Positions 1 to 53,197 are shown, counted from the first letter of the stretch. The stretch is DNA of 64,000 bases from Candidatus Omnitrophota bacterium (GCA_015233145.1 JADFYI010000002.1:120858-184857), one strand, 5' to 3'. Numbers and translations are program-made. Notes: generated by a model not told the origin, from the letters alone.

Positions 1-801
1 GACCAGAGCCCCCGATGAACAATCAATAAGGTCAACCCCCTCTTTTTTCAACACATGGGCCAAGCAAACAGACTGTTCAATATCCCAGCCTTCAGCTCCA
101 AGCCAGTCAGTGGCTGAGATACGCACAAAAAGCGGACGCTCTTTCGGCCAAACGGTTTTTACATCAGAAACAATTTCTCTTAAAAGACGCATGCGGTTTT
201 CCAACGAGCCTCCATACTGGTCTGTCCGCTTGTTAGAAACAGGCGAAAGAAATTCATGCAATAAATACCCGTGCGCTGAATGGATTTCAAGCACCTTAAA
301 ACCTGCCTGCAGAGCACGACGGGCAGCTTTTAAAAAAGCACTTTTCACTTCGTCAATGCCTGCCCGGGTCAACTCTTCAGGCACTTGAAAAGCCTGGTCA
401 AAAGGAACAGCACTCGGGGCAACCGGGGCCCAGCTTCCCTGCTCTGGGGTGAGAGGAAGCCCCCCAGCCCACGGCTTTGCCGTGGAGGCTTTTCTTCCGG
501 CATGCGCCAGTTGGATTCCCGGAACAGCCCCCTGGGATTCAATAAAACGCGTCACACGCTCCAGCATGGGAATGTGATCATCTTTCCATAAGCCCAAATC
601 CTCAGGGCTGATCCTGCCTTCGGGCCGGACAGCCGTCGCCTCTGTCATAACCAGTGCGGCCCCTCCCACGGCGCGGGATCCCAAATGCACCAAATGCCAG
701 TCATTGGCAAATCCGTCGTCACTCGAATACTCACACATGGGAGAAACCACAATCCTGTTTCTGAAAACAATATCCCGTATCTGCAAAGCTTCAAATAGCA
801 T
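1..801 (-). CDS. NADH:flavin oxidoreductase / NADPH dehydrogenase, Old Yellow Enzyme family (YqjM/NamA-like); C-terminus runs off the window
   Basis: Absent from the ORF track because it is open to the window edge. My translation from ATG 801..799 (AGGAA upstream) reads MLFEALQIRDIVFRNRIVVSPMCEYSSDDGFANDWHLVHLGSRAVGGAALVMTEATAVRPEGRISPEDLGLW..., a typical OYE N-terminal half. Confidence 0.8.
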   Translation of the reverse strand, partial: MLFEALQIRDIVFRNRIVVSPMCEYSSDDGFANDWHLVHLGSRAVGGAALVMTEATAVRPEGRISPEDLGLWKDDHIPMLERVTRFIESQGAVPGIQLAHAGRKASTAKPWAGGLPLTPEQGSWAPVAPSAVPFDQAFQVPEELTRAGIDEVKSAFLKAARRALQAGFKVLEIHSAHGYLLHEFLSPVSNKRTDQYGGSLENRMRLLREIVSDVKTVWPKERPLFVRISATDWLGAEGWDIEQSVCLAHVLKKEGVDLIDCSSGALV

Positions 802-812
802 GACATTCCTTT

Positions 813-1325
813 CTATTTTTCAAACAGTTTAAGGTATTCGCCATACCCTTCTTTGGCCAGATTTTCTTTGGGGATAAACCGCAGTGCCGCAGAATTAATG
901 CAATATCTTAATCCCGTCGGCAAAGGGCCGTCATGAAACACGTGGCCCAAATGAGCGCCTGACGTGGCATCTTTAACCTCTGTCCGGGTCATGCCAAAAG
1001 TTTCATCGGTCTTTGAAACAATTTCTTGGGAACTCATAGGGCTCGTAAAACTCGGCCAACCCGTGCCTGAATCAAACTTGGCCTTTGAGCTGAAAAGAGG
1101 CTTTCCGGAAACACGATCAACATAAATTCCTTCTTTATGATTATTCCAGTATTCATTGTTAAAAGCCGGTTCAGTACCGCAATTTTGCGTGACATCATAT
1201 TGTAAAGGGGTTAAGACTTTTTTAAGTTCTTCTTTATTATAATTTTTTTCTCCCGAAGACATAGACAACCCCTCCCGAAAACTTAGCAAAAAAATAAGTA
1301 AACAAAGAAATATAAATATCCGCAT
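813..1325 (-). CDS. msrB: peptide-methionine (R)-S-oxide reductase MsrB with hydrophobic N-terminal signal/anchor-like extension
   Basis: 170 aa ORF with SelR/MsrB hallmarks GTGWPSF and RYCINSAAL. The N-terminus [16 protein letters not shown] is hydrophobic. An alternative internal ATG at 1262 (M22) has a stronger SD (GGGAGGGG). Confidence 0.9.
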
Positions 1326-7538: not shown

Positions 7539-9059
7539 TTATTTCTTAAATGCCAGTTTAAATTCCCCGACAGCTTTCTTAAGCGCCTCAGCGGTTTCGT
7601 CGGAAATATCTCCCGAAGAGTCAATGGTCTTTTCAAGGTCAGGATATTTCTGAGCAATAAACTGATAAAGCTCGACTTCAAAAGCCTTGATCTTCTCAAC
7701 CGGCAGATCATCCAGAAGCCCGTTAACACCGGAGAAAATCAGGATCACCTGTTTGGCCAGTGACAAAGGCACATACTGCCCCTGTTTTAAAATTTCCACA
7801 ATCCTCTCGCCGCGGTTGAGCTGGTCCTGGGTAGCCTTGTCAAGGTCGGAGCCAAACTGCAGGAATGTGACGAGCTCACGATACTGCGCCAGCTCCAGGC
7901 GCACCTTGCCGGCCACCTTACGCATGGCTTTTGCCTGGGCCTTGCCGCCGACACGCGACACTGAAAGGCCCACATTAATCGCTGGACGGATGCCGGAAAA
8001 GAAAAGGTCAGACTCAAGATAAATCTGGCCATCGGTAATCGAGATAACGTTTGTGGGGATGTAGCTCGTAATGTCACCCCCCTGTGTTTCAATAATGGGA
8101 AGCGCGGTTAAAGACCCTGCGCCCAAAGAATCAGACAACTTGGCGGAACGCTCCAGCAGGCGCGAATGAAGGTAGAAAATATCCCCTGGATACGCCTCGC
8201 GGCCCGGCGGACGGCGGAGCAAGAGCGCCAGCTGGCGGTAGGCCTGGGCATGCTTGGAAAGGTCATCATAAACAACCAAAACATCCTTGCCGTTATACAT
8301 AAATTCTTCGCCGATCGCACAGCCTGAATAAGGAGCCAGATACTGGGAAGACGCCGAAGCGCGGGATGATGCGCTGACAATGGTTGTATAATCCATGGCG
8401 CCATACTTCTTTAACGTTTCAGCAATCGCAACAATGCTCGAAATTTTTTGTCCAATAGCCACATAAACGCAAAAAACGCCCTTGCCTTTTTGATTGATAA
8501 TCGTATCAATGGCCACCGCTGTTTTTCCGGTCTGGCGGTCTCCGATAATGAGCTCACGCTGGCCTCGCCCGATGGGAATCATGGCATCCACAGCCTTAAT
8601 CCCGGTTTGCAATGGCGCATTGATGGGCTGGCGGGAAATGACGTCTGGCGCGTTAAATTCAATTGGACGGAATTTTTCTGTCACAATCGGGCCTTTGCCG
8701 TCAATGGGGCTGCCCAGGGCATTAACAACGCGGCCTATGAGGGCATCACCGACAGGAACCTGGACCACTTTTCCGGTCCGCTTGACAACATCACCCTCTT
8801 TAATTTTCTGGTCGGGATTGTCTTTTCCGAAAATAATAACACCGACACTGTCTTCTTCAAGGTTAACGGCCATGCCCAAAACATTATTGGGGAACTCAAT
8901 GATTTCATTAACCATGACGTCATCCAGGCCGTAAACACGGGCAATGGCATCCCCCACCTGGATAACCGTGCCCACAGATTCGGTCTTGAGCTGGCTGGAA
9001 AAATTCTCGAGCTCGCTTTTAATAATCGAAGAAATTTCCTCGGGTCTTAAATTACTCAT
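7539..9059 (-). CDS. atpA: F1 ATP synthase alpha subunit
   Basis: 506 aa with Walker A GDRQTGKT. Confidence 0.97.
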
Positions 9060-9604
9060 CGCACCACCTGTACTTTCAACAATTGTTTTCTCAACTCTTC
9101 AAGTTTATGGCGGATAGAGCCATCCATGATTTTATTCCCGATCACGATTTGTATGCCGCCCAAAAGCTCCGGCTTAAGTTCCAGATAAAGATTAATTTTC
9201 TTTCCCAAACGCGCCGCGAGTTTGTTTTTAATGGCCTCGACAATATCAAGCTCAACAGGAAAAGTTGTCCGCAACACAGCATCAACAACCTCGCCGTGAG
9301 AATAGACCACGCGAATATAATCCGTAATGTCCACAATCCTGTTAATGCGCTTTTTGGAAATCAAATACTTCAAGAATTCCCTGGTCTCAAGATGGAACCC
9401 CTCAGACATGACATGGTCAATAACCCTCGCCTTATCCGGCTGAGGCACCTCAGGGGTTTCAAGAAAATGCTGGAACTCCGGATGCTCGCGCAAAACCCCG
9501 CGCAGAGATTTCATGTCCTCGACAATCTGCGGCAAGCCGATTTTCGGAAGCGCAAAAGTCACGTACGCCTGAGCGTACCTTGTCACAAGAGTCCTGTCAC
9601 GCAT
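9056..9604 (-). CDS. atpH: F1 ATP synthase delta (OSCP) subunit
   Basis: 182 aa, assigned by operon position and OSCP-like sequence. It has 4 nt and 8 nt overlaps with its neighbours. Confidence 0.85.
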
Positions 9605-10097
9605 GAGGCTTATCCAGTTCCGTCAAGATGCCTTCAATGATTTTCTTGTCGTTCTCAAAAGAAAGTTTTTCCTGAATCATGTGCTCTGTGGCGCTGATGA
9701 CCATTTCAACAATTTCAGTCTTAAGGACTTCACGGGATTTGGCGAACTCAAAAGTGATTTCTTTCTTGGCATCAGCAACAATTCGCTCAGCCTCCTGGCG
9801 GGCATGCTCACGGATTTCCTGGGCCTTGACCTCACCCATGGCCTCATACTCCTTGAGGCGTTTTTTCGAAATCTCCTCAACCTTGCTTAAAAAGGTTTCA
9901 TATTCCCCCTTAAGCCTGGCCACTTCGAGCCTTGTTGTTTCAATGGCCTTGAGCTCGCCCTCAACCTTGGAACGGCGATCTTCGAGGACTTTAAAAATCT
10001 TCGTCCAAAGAAGATGCTTTAAAAGAAAATAAACCAAAGCAAAGCAAACAACCTGAGCCACAATCAATTTAAAATCTAGGAGTTTTAAAAGTTCCAT
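9597..10097 (-). CDS. atpF: Fo ATP synthase b subunit
   Basis: 166 aa with a single N-terminal TM and a long charged helix. Confidence 0.85.
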   Translation of the reverse strand: MELLKLLDFKLIVAQVVCFALVYFLLKHLLWTKIFKVLEDRRSKVEGELKAIETTRLEVARLKGEYETFLSKVEEISKKRLKEYEAMGEVKAQEIREHARQEAERIVADAKKEITFEFAKSREVLKTEIVEMVISATEHMIQEKLSFENDKKIIEGILTELDKPHA

Positions 10098-10187
10098 AAC
10101 CGCCCTCTTCTCTTAAGGATTCCCAAAGCCTCTTTGAATACGCAAAAGTGGCTCCCGTCGCTCCATCTTATGGGGTCTCCCATGGAG

Positions 10188-10421
10188 TTATATTTTCCCA
10201 ACTAGAGGAAAAACGATAAACGCAAGAACGTAAAAAATGATTGTTTCAATGAGCGCGCAGCCCAAAAGCATCACTGTCATAATTTTTCCCATGGCTTCAG
10301 GCTGGCGGCCAAGAGCTTCCATAGCCCCACCGACGGCCCGGCCAAGCGCCATCCCCACACCCAAAGCCGCGAGACCAACGCCAATGGGCAACCCTATAGC
10401 TAATGCAAACTTGTAATCCAT
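10188..10421 (-). CDS. atpE: Fo ATP synthase c subunit
   Basis: 77 aa helical hairpin with an RQPE loop and the carboxylate Glu in ALIETIIFY. Confidence 0.93.
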   Translation of the reverse strand: MDYKFALAIGLPIGVGLAALGVGMALGRAVGGAMEALGRQPEAMGKIMTVMLLGCALIETIIFYVLAFIVFPLVGKI

Positions 10422-10439
10422 TATACCCTCCCTATTGTT

Positions 10440-11201
10440 TTAATGATGCGCCTCATCATGCTTCATGAATAAAGAAAAATAAACCAACGTCAGGATACTG
10501 AAAACTGCCGCCTGAATCGTAGATGTCAATATGACCAGAAGAAAATTAGGAAAAAGCCAGACAATACCGTCTTTAAGCCCCCAGCTTGAAAAAAGCGCCA
10601 AGATCATGTCGTCGCTGTAAATATTGCTCCTCAAGCGCAATGATAAACTTATAGGACGCACCAAGAGGCTCACGGTTTCCATAAAAAATAAAAAAATCGG
10701 GATAATAATCGTCATGGCCATAACCCCGCGCGGCTGGCCCATAAGATGATCAAAAAAACCCAGGAATCCCTGCTCCTTAAAGCCGATGTAGAGCATATAA
10801 AAGAAAACAACCAGTGCCAGCGCCAATGTTGTGGATAACTCCGTTGTCGGCGACTTAAAAAACGGGATAAGCCCGATATAGTTCATGGCTAAAATATAAA
10901 TGAAAAGCGTTCCGATAAAAGGGGTATACTTCCGTCCCTTGTCACCGAGAAGGCTGCAGACAAAGTCATCCAGAAAAGTCACAAAAAATTCAGCCGCGCT
11001 CTGCAAACGGCCGGGGCTTGTTTCACACTTGCGGGTTGCAAAATAAGCAACCACGGCCAAAAGAACAATAACAACAACAGAATAAATCGTGCTTTCCCAA
11101 AAATGCAGAAAATGGCCCAACGGCTTATCAGCGTTTAATTCGGCTATAAGGCTGACCAGATTGGGAAATTCAGGATGTGACTGGGACGCTGCTTCTGACA
11201 T
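10440..11201 (-). CDS. atpB: Fo ATP synthase a subunit
   Basis: 253 aa polytopic protein with the conserved Arg region SLSLRLRSN. Confidence 0.9.
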   Translation of the reverse strand: MSEAASQSHPEFPNLVSLIAELNADKPLGHFLHFWESTIYSVVVIVLLAVVAYFATRKCETSPGRLQSAAEFFVTFLDDFVCSLLGDKGRKYTPFIGTLFIYILAMNYIGLIPFFKSPTTELSTTLALALVVFFYMLYIGFKEQGFLGFFDHLMGQPRGVMAMTIIIPIFLFFMETVSLLVRPISLSLRLRSNIYSDDMILALFSSWGLKDGIVWLFPNFLLVILTSTIQAAVFSILTLVYFSLFMKHDEAHH

Positions 11202-11218
11202 GAGAGTCTCTTTTGTGA

Positions 11219-11283
11219 ATTAGGGACACAACCTTTACCCCAACTGCCTGATGGCGTAAATGAATAAAAGTTGTGTCCCTAAT
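11219..11283 (-). promoter_or_regulatory. 14 bp perfect stem-loop in the atp operon 5' UTR
   Basis: ATTAGGGACACAAC (11219..11232) pairs with GTTGTGTCCCTAAT (11270..11283), with a 37 nt loop. It ends 18 nt upstream of the atpB ATG. Confidence 0.5.
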
Positions 11284-11310
11284 GAATCATTTCTAATCTG
11301 AACTCGTCTC

Positions 11311-11338
11311 AATATAACATAAAAGACATCTTTGTCAA
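11311..11338 (-). promoter_or_regulatory. sigma70-like promoter of the atp operon
   Basis: Minus strand TTGACA (11338..11333), a 16 nt spacer, then an extended -10 TGtTATATT (-10 at 11316..11311). Confidence 0.5.
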
Positions 11339-11386
11339 TTTAGGGTAAAACTATTTAAGATGCCCTGACCGTGAGGTCGTGGCGCT

Positions 11387-11728
11387 TCACCCTATGGCAA
11401 TTCCGCCGCGCTCCTCCGTGCGGATGCGGATGCACTGCTCTAACGGCAGGATAAAAATTTTGCCGTCCCCTGTTTCACCGGTCTTGGCGCCCTTAATGAT
11501 CGCCTTGACAGTGGCTTCGGCAAAATTATCATTCACGGCAATCTCAAGGCGGACCTTGCGAAGCAAGTTCCCATGCTCCCTGGCGCCGCGGTAAACCTCG
11601 GTCACGCCTTTCTGGCGGCCATGGCCTAACACTTCACTCACGGTAATCAAATTAATCTCAGCCTTGTACAACTGCTCCTTGACCTCTTCCAACCTGCTCG
11701 GTTGTATAATGGCGATAATAAGTTTCAT
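11387..11728 (-). CDS. glnK: nitrogen regulatory protein P-II (GlnK)
   Basis: 113 aa from [10 protein letters not shown] (ATG 11728, GGAGG SD). The T-loop is [13 protein letters not shown] and the family motif [10 protein letters not shown] is present. The track ORF 11387..11788 carries a spurious 20 aa N-terminal extension that overlaps amtB. Confidence 0.93.
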
Positions 11729-11759
11729 GATATCCTCCGTATTTCTATTCCAAAATGGT

Positions 11760-12986
11760 TTATTCCAACATCGTATAAGCACGCTCATGATGCTGCGTCA
11801 GGTCAAGGCCGACATCCTCATCTTTCGGGCTCACCTTCATGCCCATGACCAGGTCAACCACCTTGAAAATAACCGCAGTCACAATCCCCGAATAAATTAA
11901 AGTGACAGCCACAGCCTTAATCTGAATCAGAAACTGCGCAGGATTGCCAAAAAACAACCCGTCATTACCTGCCGAATTCACAAACTTTGTGGCAAAAAGG
12001 CCTGTTGCCAAAGCCCCCCAGATACCACCAACACAGTGGACGCCGAAAGCATCAAGCGCATCATCATAACCAAGCTGCGGCTTGATGACAACAGCAGCAA
12101 AGTAGCAGAACACGCTGACCAAAAGCCCAATGATAACAGCACCTCCGACATTCACAAACCCGGCTGCAGGTGTAATGGCCACCAATCCCGCCACAGCTCC
12201 GGAACAAACACCGAACATCGTCGGCTTACCGCCGCGAACCCACTCAATAATAGCCCAGCTTAAACCTGCTGCTGCTGCCGCAGTGTTTGTGACCACAAAA
12301 GCATTGGTCGCAAGGCCATTGGCTGCCAGGGCTGAACCTGCGTTAAACCCAAACCATCCGAACCACAAAAGAGCAGTCCCGAGCACAATAAAAGGAACAT
12401 TGTGAGGTGCTGGAACATGCTTATCCGTATTTTTACGACGGCCAAGCATGATGGCCATGACCAAAGCCGCAATACCTGCGTTAATATGAACCACAGTACC
12501 GCCAGCGAAATCCAGAGCCCCTAAATCGCGAAGGAATCCGCCCATGCCCCACACCCAATGGCAAACCGGCGCATAAACAAAAGTCAACCACAGAGTAATA
12601 AAAACTAAGAACGAAGAAAACTTCATCCTTTCCGCAAAACCACCGATGATCAAAGCCGGGGTAATGACCGCGAACATGGCCTGAAAAATCATAAAGGCCT
12701 GATGCGGAATTGTGGCAGAGTAATCATTATAGGGTTCCAGGCTGACACCGTTGAGCATCCACCACTGAAACCCGCCCCAAAAACTCTTGCCTGGCGCAAA
12801 AGCCAGACTATACCCATAAATCACCCATAAAACACTGACCAGGCACAACACAATCATGCACTGCATTAAAACACTCAAAACATTCTTCCTTCTCACCATG
12901 CCTCCGTAAAAAAAGGCCAACCCTGGTGTCATTAACATGACCAGCGCCGTTGAAACAAGTACCCAAGCTGTATCTCCTGCATTCAT
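11760..12986 (-). CDS. amtB: ammonium transporter AmtB
   Basis: 408 aa with the twin-His pore motifs [10 protein letters not shown] and [18 protein letters not shown] precedes the ATG. Confidence 0.95.
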
Positions 12987-13010
12987 AGTAAACTCCTTTT
13001 TTAATCTACA

Positions 13011-13063
13011 TTAAAAAATAAAAATGGCGTCTTCGAACCAATCCTTGTTGGTCTGAAGACGCC
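13011..13063 (-). terminator. intrinsic terminator inside the amtB leader
   Basis: Minus-strand stem GGCGUCUUCAGACCAA / UUGGUUCGAAGACGCC (13063..13048 / 13041..13026; 16 positions with 1 mismatch and 1 G.U), a 6 nt loop, then AUUUUUAUUUUUU (13025..13013). Confidence 0.7.
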
Positions 13064-13077
13064 TTCGTCTTAAATCT

Positions 13078-13177
13078 TCTAAAGCTTCTTTACTTTATGC
13101 TCTCGGGCTGCTTAGCCCGTTTCTTTCACGGCCTTTTCGGCCGTGCTAGGACTCACAACTGTGTGAATCCGCTTAGA
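13078..13177 (-). promoter_or_regulatory. candidate aptamer-like four-way-junction RNA fold in the amtB-glnK leader (class unknown)
   Basis: P1 is UCUAAGC (13177..13171) with GCUUUAGA (13085..13078). P2 is 13170..13149 (9 bp, loop CAGU), P3 is 13145..13127 (7 bp, loop GAAAA) and P4 is 13119..13104 (6 bp, loop AAGC). It starts at the predicted TSS and is followed by the terminator. Confidence 0.4.
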
Positions 13178-13184
13178 TAATTTA

Positions 13185-13213
13185 AATATATACCTCCACG
13201 GAAAAAATATCAA
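13185..13213 (-). promoter_or_regulatory. sigma70-like promoter driving the amtB leader
   Basis: Minus strand TTGATA (13213..13208), a 17 nt spacer, then TATATT (13190..13185), with an A/T-rich UP-like region upstream. Confidence 0.5.
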
Positions 13214-13284: not shown

Positions 13285-13437
13285 GGTAGCTCCTAAAGCC
13301 CCGGGGCGCTATTGCGCCCCTGGTGGCTTTAGGAGTTATTTCGCAAAAATCTTTGCGAAATAACATCCGCCCCACTACCGAACACACCCCTTAAATCCTT
13401 TCTCCCCCTACGGAGAAAGCGCGTGTTCCAACGGATG
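13285..13437. ncRNA. unassigned structured element (multi-helix RNA or palindrome cluster) downstream of spoVG
   Basis: Helix A is 13290..13300/13325..13335 plus a GC core at 13303..13309/13314..13320. Helix B is a perfect 12 bp stem at 13336..13347/13352..13363. Helix C has nested pairings at 13364..13369/13432..13437, 13380..13385/13423..13428 and 13398..13405/13412..13419. Confidence 0.35.
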
Positions 13438-13450
13438 CTAAAATCAAAAA

Positions 13451-14181: not shown

Positions 14182-14730
14182 ATGCAGGTCGGCTCTCAAA
14201 TCAAAAAATTCAGGAATCTCCGAAAAATGTCGCTCCTCTCCCTTGCCAAGGCTAGCGGTGTTCAAATCGCTACCCTCTCACGCATTGAGAACGGAAAAAT
14301 GACAGGCACATTGGAAAGCCATCTTAATGTCGCCAAGTCTCTGGGCATTGATATTGCTGAACTTTATCAAAATCTTCAGCCCGAGGAACTATTAACAGCA
14401 AGCCCTACAGAATCCTTTGAGCCAACTCCTGCGGCGGACACCAAAGTCCTTAAAGAAATCCTGACCAAACAGGTTTCTACAAAGAAAATGCTGCCGCTTC
14501 TCATGAAAATTGAGGGAAAAACAAAGACATCCGAGGAAGCCCAGCTTTTTGGCGCGGAACGTTTTATTTTTGTGCTCTCCGGGACTGTTTGTGTGCATGT
14601 CAAAAACCAGAAAGTTCAACTCACAGAAAACATGTCTCTTTACTTTAATGCCATGCTGCCTCACTTTTTTGAAAATCCATCAGACACTCCGGTGAAATTT
14701 TTGTCAATCGCAACACCTGTTAACCTTTAG
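14182..14730 (+). CDS. XRE-family HTH transcriptional regulator with C-terminal cupin domain
   Basis: 182 aa. The N-terminal HTH_3-like segment is IKKFRNLRKMSLLSLAKASGVQIATLSRIENG, and the C-terminal beta-barrel is cupin-like. AAGGAAA SD. Confidence 0.85.
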   Translation: MQVGSQIKKFRNLRKMSLLSLAKASGVQIATLSRIENGKMTGTLESHLNVAKSLGIDIAELYQNLQPEELLTASPTESFEPTPAADTKVLKEILTKQVSTKKMLPLLMKIEGKTKTSEEAQLFGAERFIFVLSGTVCVHVKNQKVQLTENMSLYFNAMLPHFFENPSDTPVKFLSIATPVNL

Positions 14731-14741
14731 AGAAATACTTT

Positions 14742-15101
14742 ATGCCCAAAACGATTCTTATCTGCGATATTGAAGAAAATACCCGGGAAGCCTTAAAAAC
14801 AATTCTTCTCAACCACGCCAACCTTATTGTTGTGGAAAACCCGCTCCAATGCCTGTCAGCCTTAAAACAAAAAGCCCCTGTTCATCTGGCTTTTGTCGGC
14901 GTGCGCACTGAGGACGGTTTTGATACACATTTTTTTGAAGAGATCCGGAAAATTGCGCCTCAAATCCCGCTCATCGCCATGGGCGACCATAAATGTGAAG
15001 AAGAGACGCTTGAGGCCGTGCGGATGGGCGCGACAGGCTATATGATCAAGCCTTTCAAAGCCGAAGAAGTCCAGGCCCTTGCCCAAAAAGATTTAAATTA
15101 A
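14742..15101 (+). CDS. stand-alone receiver-like domain protein lacking the canonical phospho-acceptor Asp (pseudo-receiver)
   Basis: 119 aa with a CheY-like fold signature (ILICDIEEN ... MIKPF). The expected DxxMP position reads HLAFVGVRTEDG. Confidence 0.75.
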   Translation: MPKTILICDIEENTREALKTILLNHANLIVVENPLQCLSALKQKAPVHLAFVGVRTEDGFDTHFFEEIRKIAPQIPLIAMGDHKCEEETLEAVRMGATGYMIKPFKAEEVQALAQKDLN

Positions 15102-27909: not shown

Positions 27910-28736
27910 GGCTTGAGCAAATTAAGCGTTGAACTCATATAAAGATAAAAAGCCGGCGCTGAAAACAAAAGACTGTCAATAATGTCCAAAACGCCTCCCA
28001 TGCCTGGTAAAAGTTTCCCGGAATCTTTGACTTCGCAATCACGTTTAATAAGAGATTCTGATAAATCGCCGAGCTGGCCCAACCCGCCAAAAAAACACCC
28101 CATGACAGCAATAAACGGTAGCGTAAAATAAGGAACCGGCGGAAGCCATGTATGGCAAAGGACAGCCGCCAGTGCGCTGAATAAAAGCCCCCCCAAGGTT
28201 CCTTCAACGGATTTATTGGGGCTCACCTTGGGTAACAGCGGGTGTTTCCCCATCCATGTCCCAACCAAAAGCGCGCCAACATCTCCCGCCTTGGTGACCG
28301 TAATAATAAACGCTACCAGTTTGGCGCCCGATACCCCTGGCAAAAGAAGCTTGATCTTGACCAGAAAACTGAGAAACCATGATACATACAAAACCGCAAA
28401 AAGCGTTGTGGAAAGTCCGATGACAGCATTGCGGTTGTCTTCACGCGCGAATTGCAGCATAAGGATGAGAAGAAACGTACAGACAATAAAAAGAAGTTCC
28501 CAGTTTTTTGTGAGCTCAAAATGTGTGGCAATGGATAACGGGATAAGAAGCCCGATAAAAATACCGGTATAACTGTAAATGGGGATACCCTTTTTCTTTT
28601 TTAAAAGATAAAAAAATTCGTAGAGGCCTCCCAGCGTCAGCAGGCAAATAACAGCAATAAAAAGCCAGTCGTTCATGATGGCCATAGCCGTCAGAAGAAC
28701 GCCAACAAGACTGCTCATAACACGTTTTAAATTCAT
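27906..28736 (-). CDS. cdsA: phosphatidate cytidylyltransferase
   Basis: 276 aa polytopic protein. The C-terminal SLIKRDCEVKDSGKLLPGMGGVLD is the CdsA signature. Confidence 0.92.
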   Translation of the reverse strand: MNLKRVMSSLVGVLLTAMAIMNDWLFIAVICLLTLGGLYEFFYLLKKKKGIPIYSYTGIFIGLLIPLSIATHFELTKNWELLFIVCTFLLILMLQFAREDNRNAVIGLSTTLFAVLYVSWFLSFLVKIKLLLPGVSGAKLVAFIITVTKAGDVGALLVGTWMGKHPLLPKVSPNKSVEGTLGGLLFSALAAVLCHTWLPPVPYFTLPFIAVMGCFFGGLGQLGDLSESLIKRDCEVKDSGKLLPGMGGVLDIIDSLLFSAPAFYLYMSSTLNLLKP

Positions 28737-50061: not shown

Positions 50062-51453
50062 CTATTGAAAACTGAGGGCTAAAACACGCCAGGCTGTTTC
50101 ATCCAGTGCAAGATCATATAATGACGTCTTCGCGGAACTTAAAATCCGGTCAGGATTTCCAAGAAAAGACAACGGGATCTTGAACAAAAGCGTCTTGTTT
50201 TTTGATTCAAACTCCACTTCCTTGCTGGGGAGCCTCTTCAATTTATCATGAATAATAAGACCATCCAGCCGATAATTCAGAGTCACTTTAGGCATTTGGG
50301 AAAACGGCGTAGCCTTGCTATAGGGCAGCAAATAAAGCATGACGCCCAGTTCTTTGTCAATTTCTCTCTTTAAAGTCAGGCGGACAAGAAGCTTGTCTTT
50401 TTGCAAAGCATATTCCAAAGAAGAAATCTGGTCTGAATGAGCAGGCTCTTTTAAAGAAGTTTGGGGAATAACGCTGGAGGCATCTGTCCATTGGACTTGA
50501 TCTCCTAGCTGATTGGCTAATGGAATGGGAGAATAATCCCCAAAATCCTCATTCTTACGGGCAAATGTTACAAGATAGTTAGGCGCATATTTAATTTGCG
50601 ACTGGTACAATTCAATCGAATTCTTTTTTCTTTGAACTTCCACACGGGAAAGATCAAGTTTTTTCCATCCGATCTCGCTCTCTTTAAGGTCTGGCGGGAC
50701 ATCAAGCGCAAGCTCCGGATGATACCCTCGCGGCTTTGGCCAGCCGACAACGTGAATAATATAAGGGTCGATTTCCGGTGAAGGAATTTTCCCTTCAAGG
50801 TCCCATAAGGCAATCCTGGTAAAAAGATAAAGCGCGCGATGGTCCCGGTTGACATCCGCAGGATGGGAAACAACAACCCTTGTGGGGCGAAAATCAAAAA
50901 TAACTTTCTCGAGATCCGTGAGTACGCTTTCCCCCACATAAGGGACATTTAAAGACAGTGCCGTGGCATAAGGAACCTGTCGGACCCGTGAAAGCATGCT
51001 CTTAAAAGGCTTGGCACTGCTCCCCCAGTATTTCAGCAAAACTTCCATGGTCCCAAAATCAGGGAATCCCAAAGAAACAATATCACCCGGATCCAGCCCC
51101 AAATACTCCATGGCAGCCAGGGATTCCTCACGGCGCACTTCTCCCAGGCGCAAAAATTCTTTTTTGCGGAAAACAATCCTTTTTTCATAAACAATGAAAG
51201 CAAACTCGTTATTTTCCCCATAAGTGAGGAGCACAACTTTGACTTTGGCCCCGGCCTTGATGGCCTGCTGGATCAGCCCGCCGGCGCCAATGGTCTCGTC
51301 ATCCGGATGAGGGGCCAAAACCAGAATACGGTCGTTGCTGGTGATGGGAGACAATTCTTTTTCCGGTTGCCCCTGGGCCCAGGGTCCCAGAATCAAAAGA
51401 AAAGAAAAAGCAGTCAAAAAACTGCGGATATTTTTTTGAAAATCCAACGTCAC
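50062..51453 (-). CDS. exported PIG-L/LmbE-family de-N-acetylase with extra C-terminal domain
   Basis: 463 aa with an N-terminal signal-like segment, the PIG-L motif LVLAPHPDDETIGAGG, and about 200 aa of unassigned C-terminus. Confidence 0.8.
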   Translation of the reverse strand: MTLDFQKNIRSFLTAFSFLLILGPWAQGQPEKELSPITSNDRILVLAPHPDDETIGAGGLIQQAIKAGAKVKVVLLTYGENNEFAFIVYEKRIVFRKKEFLRLGEVRREESLAAMEYLGLDPGDIVSLGFPDFGTMEVLLKYWGSSAKPFKSMLSRVRQVPYATALSLNVPYVGESVLTDLEKVIFDFRPTRVVVSHPADVNRDHRALYLFTRIALWDLEGKIPSPEIDPYIIHVVGWPKPRGYHPELALDVPPDLKESEIGWKKLDLSRVEVQRKKNSIELYQSQIKYAPNYLVTFARKNEDFGDYSPIPLANQLGDQVQWTDASSVIPQTSLKEPAHSDQISSLEYALQKDKLLVRLTLKREIDKELGVMLYLLPYSKATPFSQMPKVTLNYRLDGLIIHDKLKRLPSKEVEFESKNKTLLFKIPLSFLGNPDRILSSAKTSLYDLALDETAWRVLALSFQ

Positions 51454-51469
51454 TTAAACTCCCTCAAAA

Positions 51470-53197
51470 CTATTTCTTTTTTTTATGAACAATAAACCTG
51501 GAAGAAAACTTTTCCAGGAAGATATCCCAAATCTGCTGACTTTCCGCAGCTTTCATAATGGCGCTGCGGACATCCTCCTCTGACATAGCCTTGGCAATCA
51601 GGGAAAGAATCTGCACCTGGACGTCAGCGCCGCGCTGCGGAGTCAAAATCAAAAATATGAACCGTGCGGGCTTCCCGTCAGGCGAGTTCCATTCAATGCC
51701 ATCCTGGGAACGGCCAAAAAGAATTACCGCACGGCGGATATTGGAAAGCCTGGCATGCGGAACTGCAACCCCATTTTCAAGCCCGGTGCCGATAACATTT
51801 TCGCGCTCAAGAACCGACGTAAAAATCGACCCTGTATCAGGCAAATCATCATACTGGCCGGCAAACTCCGCAAGCTCACGCAAAGCCGCATCGCGGGACT
51901 GGGCTTTAAGGTTAACAATAATATCCCTGCGTGAAAAGTATTCCAGGATGCTGATTTCCTTGCGGCGCTTGATCGCATAACTGAGCAGCGGCCCCAAAGC
52001 CATGGCCGAAAGTACAGCGCTCAAAACAATGCCGATAAATACAGGTTCGGAAATGATGCCAAACTCCAAAGCCAAAATCCCCAGGACAATCTCCATAGCC
52101 CCGCCCGGTGTATGCGCAACCGCCACAGCCAGGTGGTTGGAACGGGAAACCCTTGTGAATTTGACGCCGATCCAGGCCCCCAGAAAACGCGCTGAAAAGC
52201 CGACCACGGCAATAAAGAAAACAATAAAGAAATCAAAATTCCGGATAAAATCAAGTTTAAGGCCGATATTGACAAAAAATATCGGGACAAAAATCGCATA
52301 AACCATTTGTGAAATAATCTGGCGGGAACGCTCCGAAAGAGAACGGGCGCCTCCGGCCATGATTCCGGCCAGGAAGAAACCGAAAAGGGCATGAATCCCC
52401 AGCCTCTGGGTCACGGCGCCGCAAAAAAGCCCTAAAAGGCAAATGAATGTCAACGATGTCGCCGGTTCCGGAAGCTGGCGCTCGGAAATCTTTTTCACAA
52501 CCACATCTGACCAACGCCGCCCAAGCGTCATGCAAAAAACAGAAAAAAGGATCATGAGCAAAAACAAAAACAAAATTCCTGACACATCAGGCATGGCCTG
52601 GGTAAAGAAAGAAAATACGAGCGTAAACACCAGCCAGCCGATAATGTCATTGACAGACAACGCCGATAAAATAAGAAACCCTAAATCTGTTTTTAAAACT
52701 TTAAGCTCATTCAATGCGCGGGCTGCCACCGGCATGGCGCTGATCGACATGGCCGTGGCCATAAAAGCGGCAAAAACAAGCCTTTTGGACGGATCCGGGA
52801 GGTACTTATCCGGCAATGCCAGGCATAAAAGGAAGCATAAAACAAATGGAGCAATAACGTCGATAAGCGCAATCCTCAAAGCATCCCCCCTCTGGCGCCA
52901 CGCTGAGGAAAAATCAACCTCAAGCCCGGTTTCGAGAAGAAGGAAAAAGACGCCCAGCCAGCCAATGGTTTCAAGCATGCTGAACTGCGTGGGATCTTGA
53001 GGAAAAATAGCAGCCTGAAGATGGGGAAAAACCCTCCCCAAAATAGTCGGCCCCATCATGAGCCCCACTAAAATTTCTGCTGTCAAAACCGGCTGTTTCC
53101 AGAAGCGAAAAACCTCCCCCAGTCCCCTGGCCAAAAAAAGAAGAATGAAAAACTGCAGTAAAAATAAGAAGAGATTTTGCTCATTAAGATAGTTCAT
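51470..53197 (-). CDS. CPA2-family cation/proton antiporter fused to a PTS EIIA(Ntr/Fru)-type domain
   Basis: 575 aa with a Na_H_exchanger-like membrane domain of about 400 aa. The C-terminal EIIA-2 domain carries the GVAVPHARL histidine. Confidence 0.85.
   Translation of the reverse strand: MNYLNEQNLFLFLLQFFILLFLARGLGEVFRFWKQPVLTAEILVGLMMGPTILGRVFPHLQAAIFPQDPTQFSMLETIGWLGVFFLLLETGLEVDFSSAWRQRGDALRIALIDVIAPFVLCFLLCLALPDKYLPDPSKRLVFAAFMATAMSISAMPVAARALNELKVLKTDLGFLILSALSVNDIIGWLVFTLVFSFFTQAMPDVSGILFLFLLMILFSVFCMTLGRRWSDVVVKKISERQLPEPATSLTFICLLGLFCGAVTQRLGIHALFGFFLAGIMAGGARSLSERSRQIISQMVYAIFVPIFFVNIGLKLDFIRNFDFFIVFFIAVVGFSARFLGAWIGVKFTRVSRSNHLAVAVAHTPGGAMEIVLGILALEFGIISEPVFIGIVLSAVLSAMALGPLLSYAIKRRKEISILEYFSRRDIIVNLKAQSRDAALRELAEFAGQYDDLPDTGSIFTSVLERENVIGTGLENGVAVPHARLSNIRRAVILFGRSQDGIEWNSPDGKPARFIFLILTPQRGADVQVQILSLIAKAMSEEDVRSAIMKAAESQQIWDIFLEKFSSRFIVHKKKK

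Follow-up and report, generated by a model that had tools for sequence, protein, structure and literature searches.

A conserved amtB-glnK leader of Candidatus Omnitrophota resembles ANTAR/GnfR-type transcription attenuators

Introduction

The Omnitrophota are uncultivated bacteria whose gene regulation is almost unknown. In a 64,000-nucleotide (nt) stretch of a Candidatus Omnitrophota genome (GCA_015233145.1, JADFYI010000002.1:120858-184857; the whole stretch is called the window below), the genes for the ammonium transporter AmtB and the P-II protein GlnK are preceded on the minus strand by a structured leader bounded by a promoter and a terminator (13009..13213). How does this leader control amtB-glnK? 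The initial annotation, made from the sequence alone, read it as a promoter-to-terminator element that sets amtB-glnK expression by regulated read-through, and proposed an undescribed riboswitch. Our analysis supports regulated read-through and points to another kind of sensor. The mechanism is more likely protein-dependent and of a known kind than an undescribed riboswitch: we consider it probable, with considerable doubt left, that the leader is a transcription attenuator with ANTAR-type antitermination, like that of Geobacter GnfR. This gives a concrete and testable model for the control of amtB-glnK, in which a constitutive sigma-70-type promoter is gated by an antiterminator protein, probably a GAF-ANTAR one-component sensor.

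Results

Transcription is predicted to start at about position 13178. The sigma-70-type promoter (13185..13213, minus strand, as are all features below unless stated otherwise) was found as initially annotated, with a -35 element TTGATA (13213..13208), a 17-nt spacer and a -10 element TATATT (13190..13185), and agrees with the consensus at 10 of 12 positions. Promoter matches in the region are not more frequent than expected by chance (2 found vs. 1.7 expected); the CTTGA of the -35 region and the TATA.T of the -10 region are invariant in seven related leaders. Three hairpins follow. H1 (13149..13170) is nearest the 5' end and has 9 base pairs (bp) and a folding energy of -12.5 kcal/mol. H2 (13127..13145) is the 7-bp hairpin CACGGCC-GAAAA-GGCCGUG (-14.6 kcal/mol), and H3 (13104..13119) is CGGGC-UAAGCA-GCCCG (-10.3 kcal/mol). 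They had been annotated as P2, P3 and P4 at 13170..13149, 13145..13127 and 13119..13104, respectively, and all three were recovered there. A purine-rich stretch, AUAAAGUAAAGA, is kept after H3, and the linker that leads to the next conserved hairpin contains an optional local hairpin, H4 (13080..13097; UAAAG-UAAAGAAG-CUUUA, -3.1 kcal/mol). H5 (13056..13071; AAGAC-GAAGGC-GUCUU, -5.7 kcal/mol) is an antiterminator hairpin. It runs into the strong intrinsic terminator of the initial annotation (13013..13063, -23.8 kcal/mol), which consists of a stem at 13063..13026 (9 bp, a 1x1 mismatch, 6 bp and a 6-nt loop) and the U tract AUUUUUAUUUUUU at 13025..13013. The 172-nt leader folds with -66.4 kcal/mol as compared to -35.3 ± 3.8 kcal/mol for shuffled sequences (z = -8.2), and none of 200 shuffles folded as well.

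The AmtB protein of the window is 100% identical to MBF0485228.1 from a Candidatus Omnitrophica metagenome-assembled genome (MAG). Contigs of relatives were obtained by exact-protein look-ups of AmtB homologues with 84-89% identity; three of the 12 look-ups gave no DNA and two gave contigs that end just upstream of amtB. Six further lineages (L161, L163, L164/L165, L166-L169, L170/L172 and L175) have a homologous leader immediately before amtB-glnK, and it keeps the same place and orientation before amtB in all seven lineages despite differing upstream neighbours. A covariance model built from the leader alignment, R1, recovers all members at 118-176 bits, and the counts given here were taken on the R1 alignment of eight sequences. 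Overall, 95.9% of the cells are paired, vs. 25-50% when the partners are slid by 1-3 columns. Both sides are changed in 14 of 38 pairs (4/6 in H1, 3/7 in H2, 1/5 in H3 and 6/15 in the terminator). These changes on both sides, together with pairing far above the slid control, indicate that the three hairpins and the terminator are real, selected structures. Conservation and covariation are thus present in seven lineages for H1, H2, H3 and the terminator.

The hairpins differ in what is kept. The six core pairs of H1 are paired in 100% of the cells, and its loop and distal stem vary in sequence and length. The top four pairs of H2 (the GGCC stem top) are invariant, and its loops, GAAAA, GGACA and GAACA, fit a GNRA-like pentaloop. 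In the H3 stem 100% of the cells are paired, including a G-U pair and an A-U pair that replaces G-C, and 90% of the terminator cells are paired across the family. The covariation of H4 is uninformative because its sequence is invariant wherever it is present; the whole segment is missing from L161 and L163, and L166 has an additional inserted hairpin at this position.

No leader-like sequence was found by blastn or nhmmer in the 160 amtB loci listed from genome and metagenome collections, where AmtB relatives reach at most 74-78% identity. The H1-H2 module is limited to this Omnitrophota subclade, and distant leaders have H5 and the terminator without H1-H2. A second copy was not found in the window: of the other R1 matches, those at 28486..28601 (within a coding region) and 51340..51484 are weak, and the one at 12954..13074 on the plus strand is the terminator read on the opposite strand. 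At two loci with AmtB of 80-82% identity, L174 (2600..3000) and L176 (9650..10000), the leader is absent and a histidine kinase gene and a gene for a regulator with helix-turn-helix (HTH) and REC domains lie upstream of amtB. Control thus differs even among close AmtB orthologues.

Only one conserved structure, H5, competes with the terminator. The H5 loop and 3' arm (GGCGUCUU, 13063..13056) double as the 5' arm of the terminator, an overlap kept in all eight sequences, so that the two structures are mutually exclusive. Of the two segments that had been proposed to compete with the terminator, AAGACG (13071..13066) survives as the 5' arm of H5, and GAAGAU is not conserved. The 5 bp of H5 are paired in 92.5% of the cells, and its core GAC/GUC (three pairs) is invariant. 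Because H5 is worth -5.7 kcal/mol vs. -23.8 kcal/mol for the terminator, termination should be the default and an external factor should be needed to hold H5 closed.

What kind of factor could this be? Under the stem register conserved in the family, both H3 and H5 carry 6-nt loops in all eight sequences. The H3 loops in the seven lineages are UAAGCA, GCUGAA, AGUGAA, GAUGUG, AAUGUU, GAUGGU and AGAGAA. Position 4 is G in 8/8 sequences (G13111 in the window) and is the sole invariant position of this loop, the five others varying freely. The H5 loops are GAAGGC, AAAGGC, GAAGAC and AUUGAC, and again position 4 is G in 8/8 sequences (G13063). Targets of ANTAR proteins are described as two short hairpins with hexaloops and a critical G4, the second of which overlaps the terminator (Ramesh et al. 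2012, PMC3369931). In the crystal structure of EutV with RNA, base-specific contacts are limited to the flipped-out G4, and the protein does not touch A1 (Walshe et al. 2022, PMC8934654). ANTAR RNA matches before ammonium-transporter and P-II operons had already been listed by Ramesh et al. (Table S2, PMC3369931). Since the H3 and H5 hexaloops with invariant G4, and the overlap of H5 with the terminator, are those of a described ANTAR target, the mechanism is most likely protein-dependent, and we propose H3 and H5 as its first (P1-type) and second (P2-type) hairpins.

Further hexaloops were seen downstream in two relatives. A second hairpin with a canonical A1/G4 hexaloop follows the first terminator in L170 (2916..2955; GUCC-AAUGAC-GGAU) and in L164 (2912..2950; CCC-AAAGAC-GGG). 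The L170 hairpin sits inside another terminator-like stem, behind which UGUUUUU follows. The 26-nt spacer of the window has no equivalent of this second hairpin.

Similar leaders occur beside ANTAR genes at other loci. An ANTAR hidden Markov model (HMM) detects ANTAR genes in L026, L032, L055, L072, L078, L081 and L102; in these seven loci the gene lies beside amtB, and 5/5 of those scanned against Pfam match PF03861. The Bacillota loci L026 and L078 have a REC-ANTAR gene beside amtB (PF03861) and a leader with AAGU-GAAGGC-GCUU and a terminator. This hexaloop is identical to the H5 loop of the window, including the G at position 1. L072, where the hairpin also stands beside a REC-ANTAR gene, has CAGC-GAUGGU-GCUG, again with G at loop position 1. 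In L081, an Omnitrophota-like contig with an AmtB of 74% identity, a GAF-ANTAR gene is directly upstream of amtB. Its leader (700..960) contains three or four tandem terminators with CGGGC-ACAGAU-GUCCG and CGGGC-AAUGGC-GUCCG, the same stem as in H3. Two of these terminator units have the hexaloop, GAGGAC or GACGAC, at the apex of the terminator stem itself. The nearest homologues of the L081 GAF-ANTAR protein are named Omnitrophica, so that the phylum has such regulators, and GAF-ANTAR proteins are common in Omnitrophota MAGs. None of the ANTAR proteins that were looked up has an accession next to that of the window's AmtB (MBF0485228.1). Weak R1 matches were also obtained before amtB or glnK in Desulfitobacterium, Deltaproteobacteria, another Omnitrophota MAG and other MAGs. 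All of these are (A)GAC-RAAGGC-GUC(U) fused to a terminator.

No known RNA family accounts for the leader, in agreement with the initial annotation, which had matched it to no known class. A covariance search with Rfam 15 at gathering thresholds gave no hits in the whole window or in L175. With permissive filters, nothing was found on the leader strand within 13009..13213 at E <= 10, and in the two relatives searched in the same way the best matches reached no more than 29.5 bits vs. cut-offs of 35-90.

The genes around the leader are as follows. The regulated gene, amtB (11760..12986; 408 amino acids; Pfam PF00909, E = 9.5e-132), begins with an ATG at 12986 behind the Shine-Dalgarno sequence GGAG (12996..12993). 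The mechanical open reading frame of glnK (11387..11788) encodes 133 amino acids and, with its start at 11788, runs into the amtB gene. Translation probably begins at 11728 instead, because the Pfam PF00543 match begins at residue 21 and the P-II protein has 113 amino acids in all syntenic relatives; glnK would then span 11387..11728 and encode 113 amino acids. An F-type ATP synthase operon (atpB, atpE, atpF, atpH, atpA etc.) is directly downstream of amtB-glnK (7539..12986 in the window). The order amtB-glnK-ATP synthase is kept in L161, L163, L164, L170, L173, L175 and L178, with intergenic gaps of about 120-340 nt.

Homologues of spoVG and spoIID are present in the window, although the identity of its AmtB places it in the Omnitrophota. 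A pair of genes for an HTH-cupin regulator and a REC-only response regulator lies on the plus strand at 14182..15101, about 1 kb upstream of the leader. This pair is probably unrelated to the leader: it is syntenic in L175 but absent from the other leader-bearing loci, whose upstream neighbours include genes for an SNF-type transporter, a YHS-domain protein or a CCA-adding enzyme. A regulatory tie of the leader to spoVG, the HTH-cupin gene or the REC-only response regulator was rejected, as these neighbours are common to the window and L175 only.

Two other structures lie between spoVG and the amtB promoter. One is an element of about 80 nt at 13362..13441, behind the spoVG stop codon, with the segments GCAUCCGUUGG...CUUUCUCCGUAGGGGGAGAAAG...GGUAGUGGGGCGGAUGU. 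It has a homologue in the syntenic L175 (9396..9476), in which five predicted pairs are changed on both sides, and no match in Rfam. The other is a set of two long near-perfect hairpins at 13285..13365, just upstream of the promoter: GUUAUUUCGCAAAGAUUUUUGCGAAAUAAC and CUCCUAAAGCC(A)CC(A)GGGGCGC-AAUA-GCGCCCCGGGGCUUUAGGAG, the second with two bulged A residues. These hairpins are not conserved in L175 and may be spoVG terminators or an insertion.

Discussion

We propose the following model. RNA polymerase would initiate constitutively at the sigma-70-type promoter, at about 13178, and the nascent RNA would fold into H1, H2 and H3. By default, the terminator at 13063..13026 and its U tract would form, a transcript of about 165 nt would be released and amtB-glnK would stay off. 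Under nitrogen limitation, an ANTAR-domain dimer, in this phylum most likely a one-component sensor of the GAF-ANTAR type with its gene elsewhere in the genome, would bind the leader at two flipped-out G4 residues, first G13111 in the hexaloop of H3 and next G13063 in that of H5. The bound H5 would be held closed and GGCGUCUU sequestered, so that RNA polymerase would read through into amtB-glnK. In this scheme H1 may simply stabilise the 5' end, because it varies freely apart from its pairing, and H2 may offer its GNRA-like pentaloop for a tertiary or protein contact.

Several observations weigh against this model. When the window is folded alone, one extra pair closes in both H3 and H5 and the loops become tetraloops, so that the hexaloops rest on the family. 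The G4 of H5 also pairs in the terminator, and its invariance is therefore not independent evidence. At loop position 1 the window has U in H3 and G in H5 instead of the canonical A, and in the family A1 is found in only 3/7 H3 loops and 4/7 H5 loops. This point is softened by the lack of a protein contact to A1 in the EutV structure, by the loops with G at position 1 beside REC-ANTAR genes, and by the actinobacterial ANTAR RNAs, of which only just over 50% keep A1 (PMC8164766). L161 and L163 have 14-15 nt between H3 and H5; the linkers of the window (32 nt) and of L166 (51 nt) are longer than those of eut leaders (5-12 nt) and than the 2-25 nt that Mehta and Ramesh (2021) allowed in actinobacterial ANTAR RNAs, and a longer linker in eutP abolishes the action of EutV. 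The extra length consists of local hairpins (H4, and the added one in L166), and about 14-17 unpaired nt remain in all lineages, as would suit a need to keep the two hexaloops near each other. Conservation extends to H1 and H2, and in H2 to the pentaloop, yet neither hairpin has a role in ANTAR control as described. Finally, phmmer and HMM searches of the 64-kb window and of the flanks (3-10 kb) around the seven related loci (L161-L178) found no open reading frame for an ANTAR protein. We do not file the leader as a proven ANTAR member because the window lacks A1 and the regulator was not seen. The best explanation is a lineage-specific variant of a known mechanism that works like an ANTAR/GnfR attenuator.

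The conserved H2 raises the question whether another protein takes part. A non-ANTAR RNA-binding factor, such as an arginine-rich-motif protein or a NusA/NusB-type complex, could recognise H2 as a boxB-like hairpin, alone or together with an ANTAR protein. The H2 loops (GAAAA, GGACA and GAACA) can be read as G-N-R-(N)-A pentaloops, and hardly any change is seen in the loop and the top four pairs, which is unusual for a purely structural hairpin. We nevertheless consider this reading unlikely, since no conserved boxA-like sequence and no candidate protein were identified in our analysis, H2 does not touch the terminator, and the H2 module is limited to the subclade whereas H5 and the terminator occur across phyla without it. 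There is an equally modest chance that part of the leader is new in kind. H1-H2 could be a new domain grafted onto an ANTAR-type platform that acts as an additional sensor, either as a small aptamer or by docking another protein, and gates access of the antiterminator, or the whole of H1-H3 could be a new riboswitch class for a nitrogen-status signal in Omnitrophota.

The riboswitch proper, in which H1-H2-H3 would be the aptamer and binding of a nitrogen-status metabolite (glutamine, 2-oxoglutarate, ammonium or a nucleotide) would shift the balance between H5 and the terminator, seems to us slightly less likely again. It would account for a leader that is highly structured (z = -8.2), has three covarying hairpins, matches no Rfam family and has no regulator gene visible nearby; the conserved H2 pentaloop could make a tertiary contact, and the purine-rich AUAAAGUAAAGA is kept after H3. 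Its architecture is the difficulty. The initial annotation enclosed the three hairpins by a helix P1 (13177..13171 with 13085..13078) in a compact four-way junction. P1 pairs in the window, but across the relatives it does so in only 74% of the cells, and L161 and L163 lack the whole of its 3' strand. In the window this strand can instead pair locally (13097..13080), where it is the 3' strand of H4. As P1 is not conserved, neither is the four-way junction. The usual riboswitch logic is likewise missing: in the alignment of the family, no conserved pairing joins H1-H3 to H5 or the terminator, so there is no path from an aptamer to the expression platform. The hairpins are perfect and show no conserved bulge, internal loop or junction nucleotide, the joiners differ in both length and sequence, and the H1 loop varies freely. 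Recognition by a protein explains both why G4 is invariant in a free hexaloop and why H5 resembles the GnfR site.

It is very improbable that the leader is a constitutive stand-alone small RNA of about 165 nt, with amtB served by leak-through or, in the relatives, by a separate downstream promoter; the terminator is strong and the gap of about 60-240 nt from U tract to ATG in the relatives could hold a promoter, but the initial claim of no room for another promoter stands for the 26-nt gap of the window, if not for the relatives, and in 7/7 lineages with differing neighbours the element is always immediately upstream of amtB in the same orientation, with the overlap of H5 and terminator conserved. 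A leader-peptide attenuator was rejected, because by inspection the leader has no open reading frame with a Shine-Dalgarno sequence.

If the ANTAR-type model holds, the range of putative ANTAR targets becomes wider, with loop position 1 free, G4 fixed and linkers that are long but structured, and this would be useful for covariance searches. For annotation, an ANTAR target should be excluded before such a leader is counted as an orphan riboswitch candidate. The H2 hairpin is the only part that could hide something new.

How does the leader compare with known systems? Like the glutamine riboswitch (glnA RNA) and other Rfam families of nitrogen genes, it is a structured 5' leader before amtB and a P-II gene. 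In contrast to the glutamine riboswitch, it is a series of plain hairpins without a three-stem junction, E-loop or pseudoknot.

The nut-site boxB hairpins of phages lambda and P22 share with H2 a short G-C-rich stem and a fitting pentaloop in a leader that controls termination. The lambda boxB loop is GAAAA. Phage N peptides bind GNRA-like boxB pentaloops, the P22 loop being GACAA (PMC12550061). Unlike a nut site, the leader alignment shows, by inspection, no boxA-like conserved sequence. The resemblance is limited to the loop type of H2, and we regard it as a lead rather than a finding.

The targets of EutV, NasR and AmiR also resemble the leader. They too have two weak hexaloop hairpins that a protein must hold, with an invariant G4, the second overlapping the 5' half of the terminator, and they are linked to nitrogen metabolism genes, including ammonium transporters and P-II. 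The leader of the window differs from them in its loop position 1 (U and G, not A), in its 32-nt linker containing a hairpin, and in the two further conserved hairpins that precede the pair.

A close counterpart is found in Geobacter sulfurreducens, where the GnfR site CAGGCAANGGCGCC is present in amtB, glnK and nif leaders, upstream of and overlapping the terminator (Ueki and Lovley 2010, PMC2995071). The H5 loop RAAGGC, closed by C-G, matches this site. There are differences. Geobacter uses RpoN promoters under GnfL/GnfM, whereas a sigma-70-type promoter is conserved here; GnfR is a REC-ANTAR response regulator, whereas the regulator in Omnitrophota is more probably of the GAF-ANTAR type; and no counterparts of the additional 5' hairpins, H1 and H2, have been described in Geobacter. 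The targets (amtB and glnK) and the presence of terminators in the leaders are the same. Drawn as a hairpin, the GnfR site AGGC-AANGGC-GCCU has the same loop type and the same C-G closing pair as AGAC-GAAGGC-GUCU of H5.

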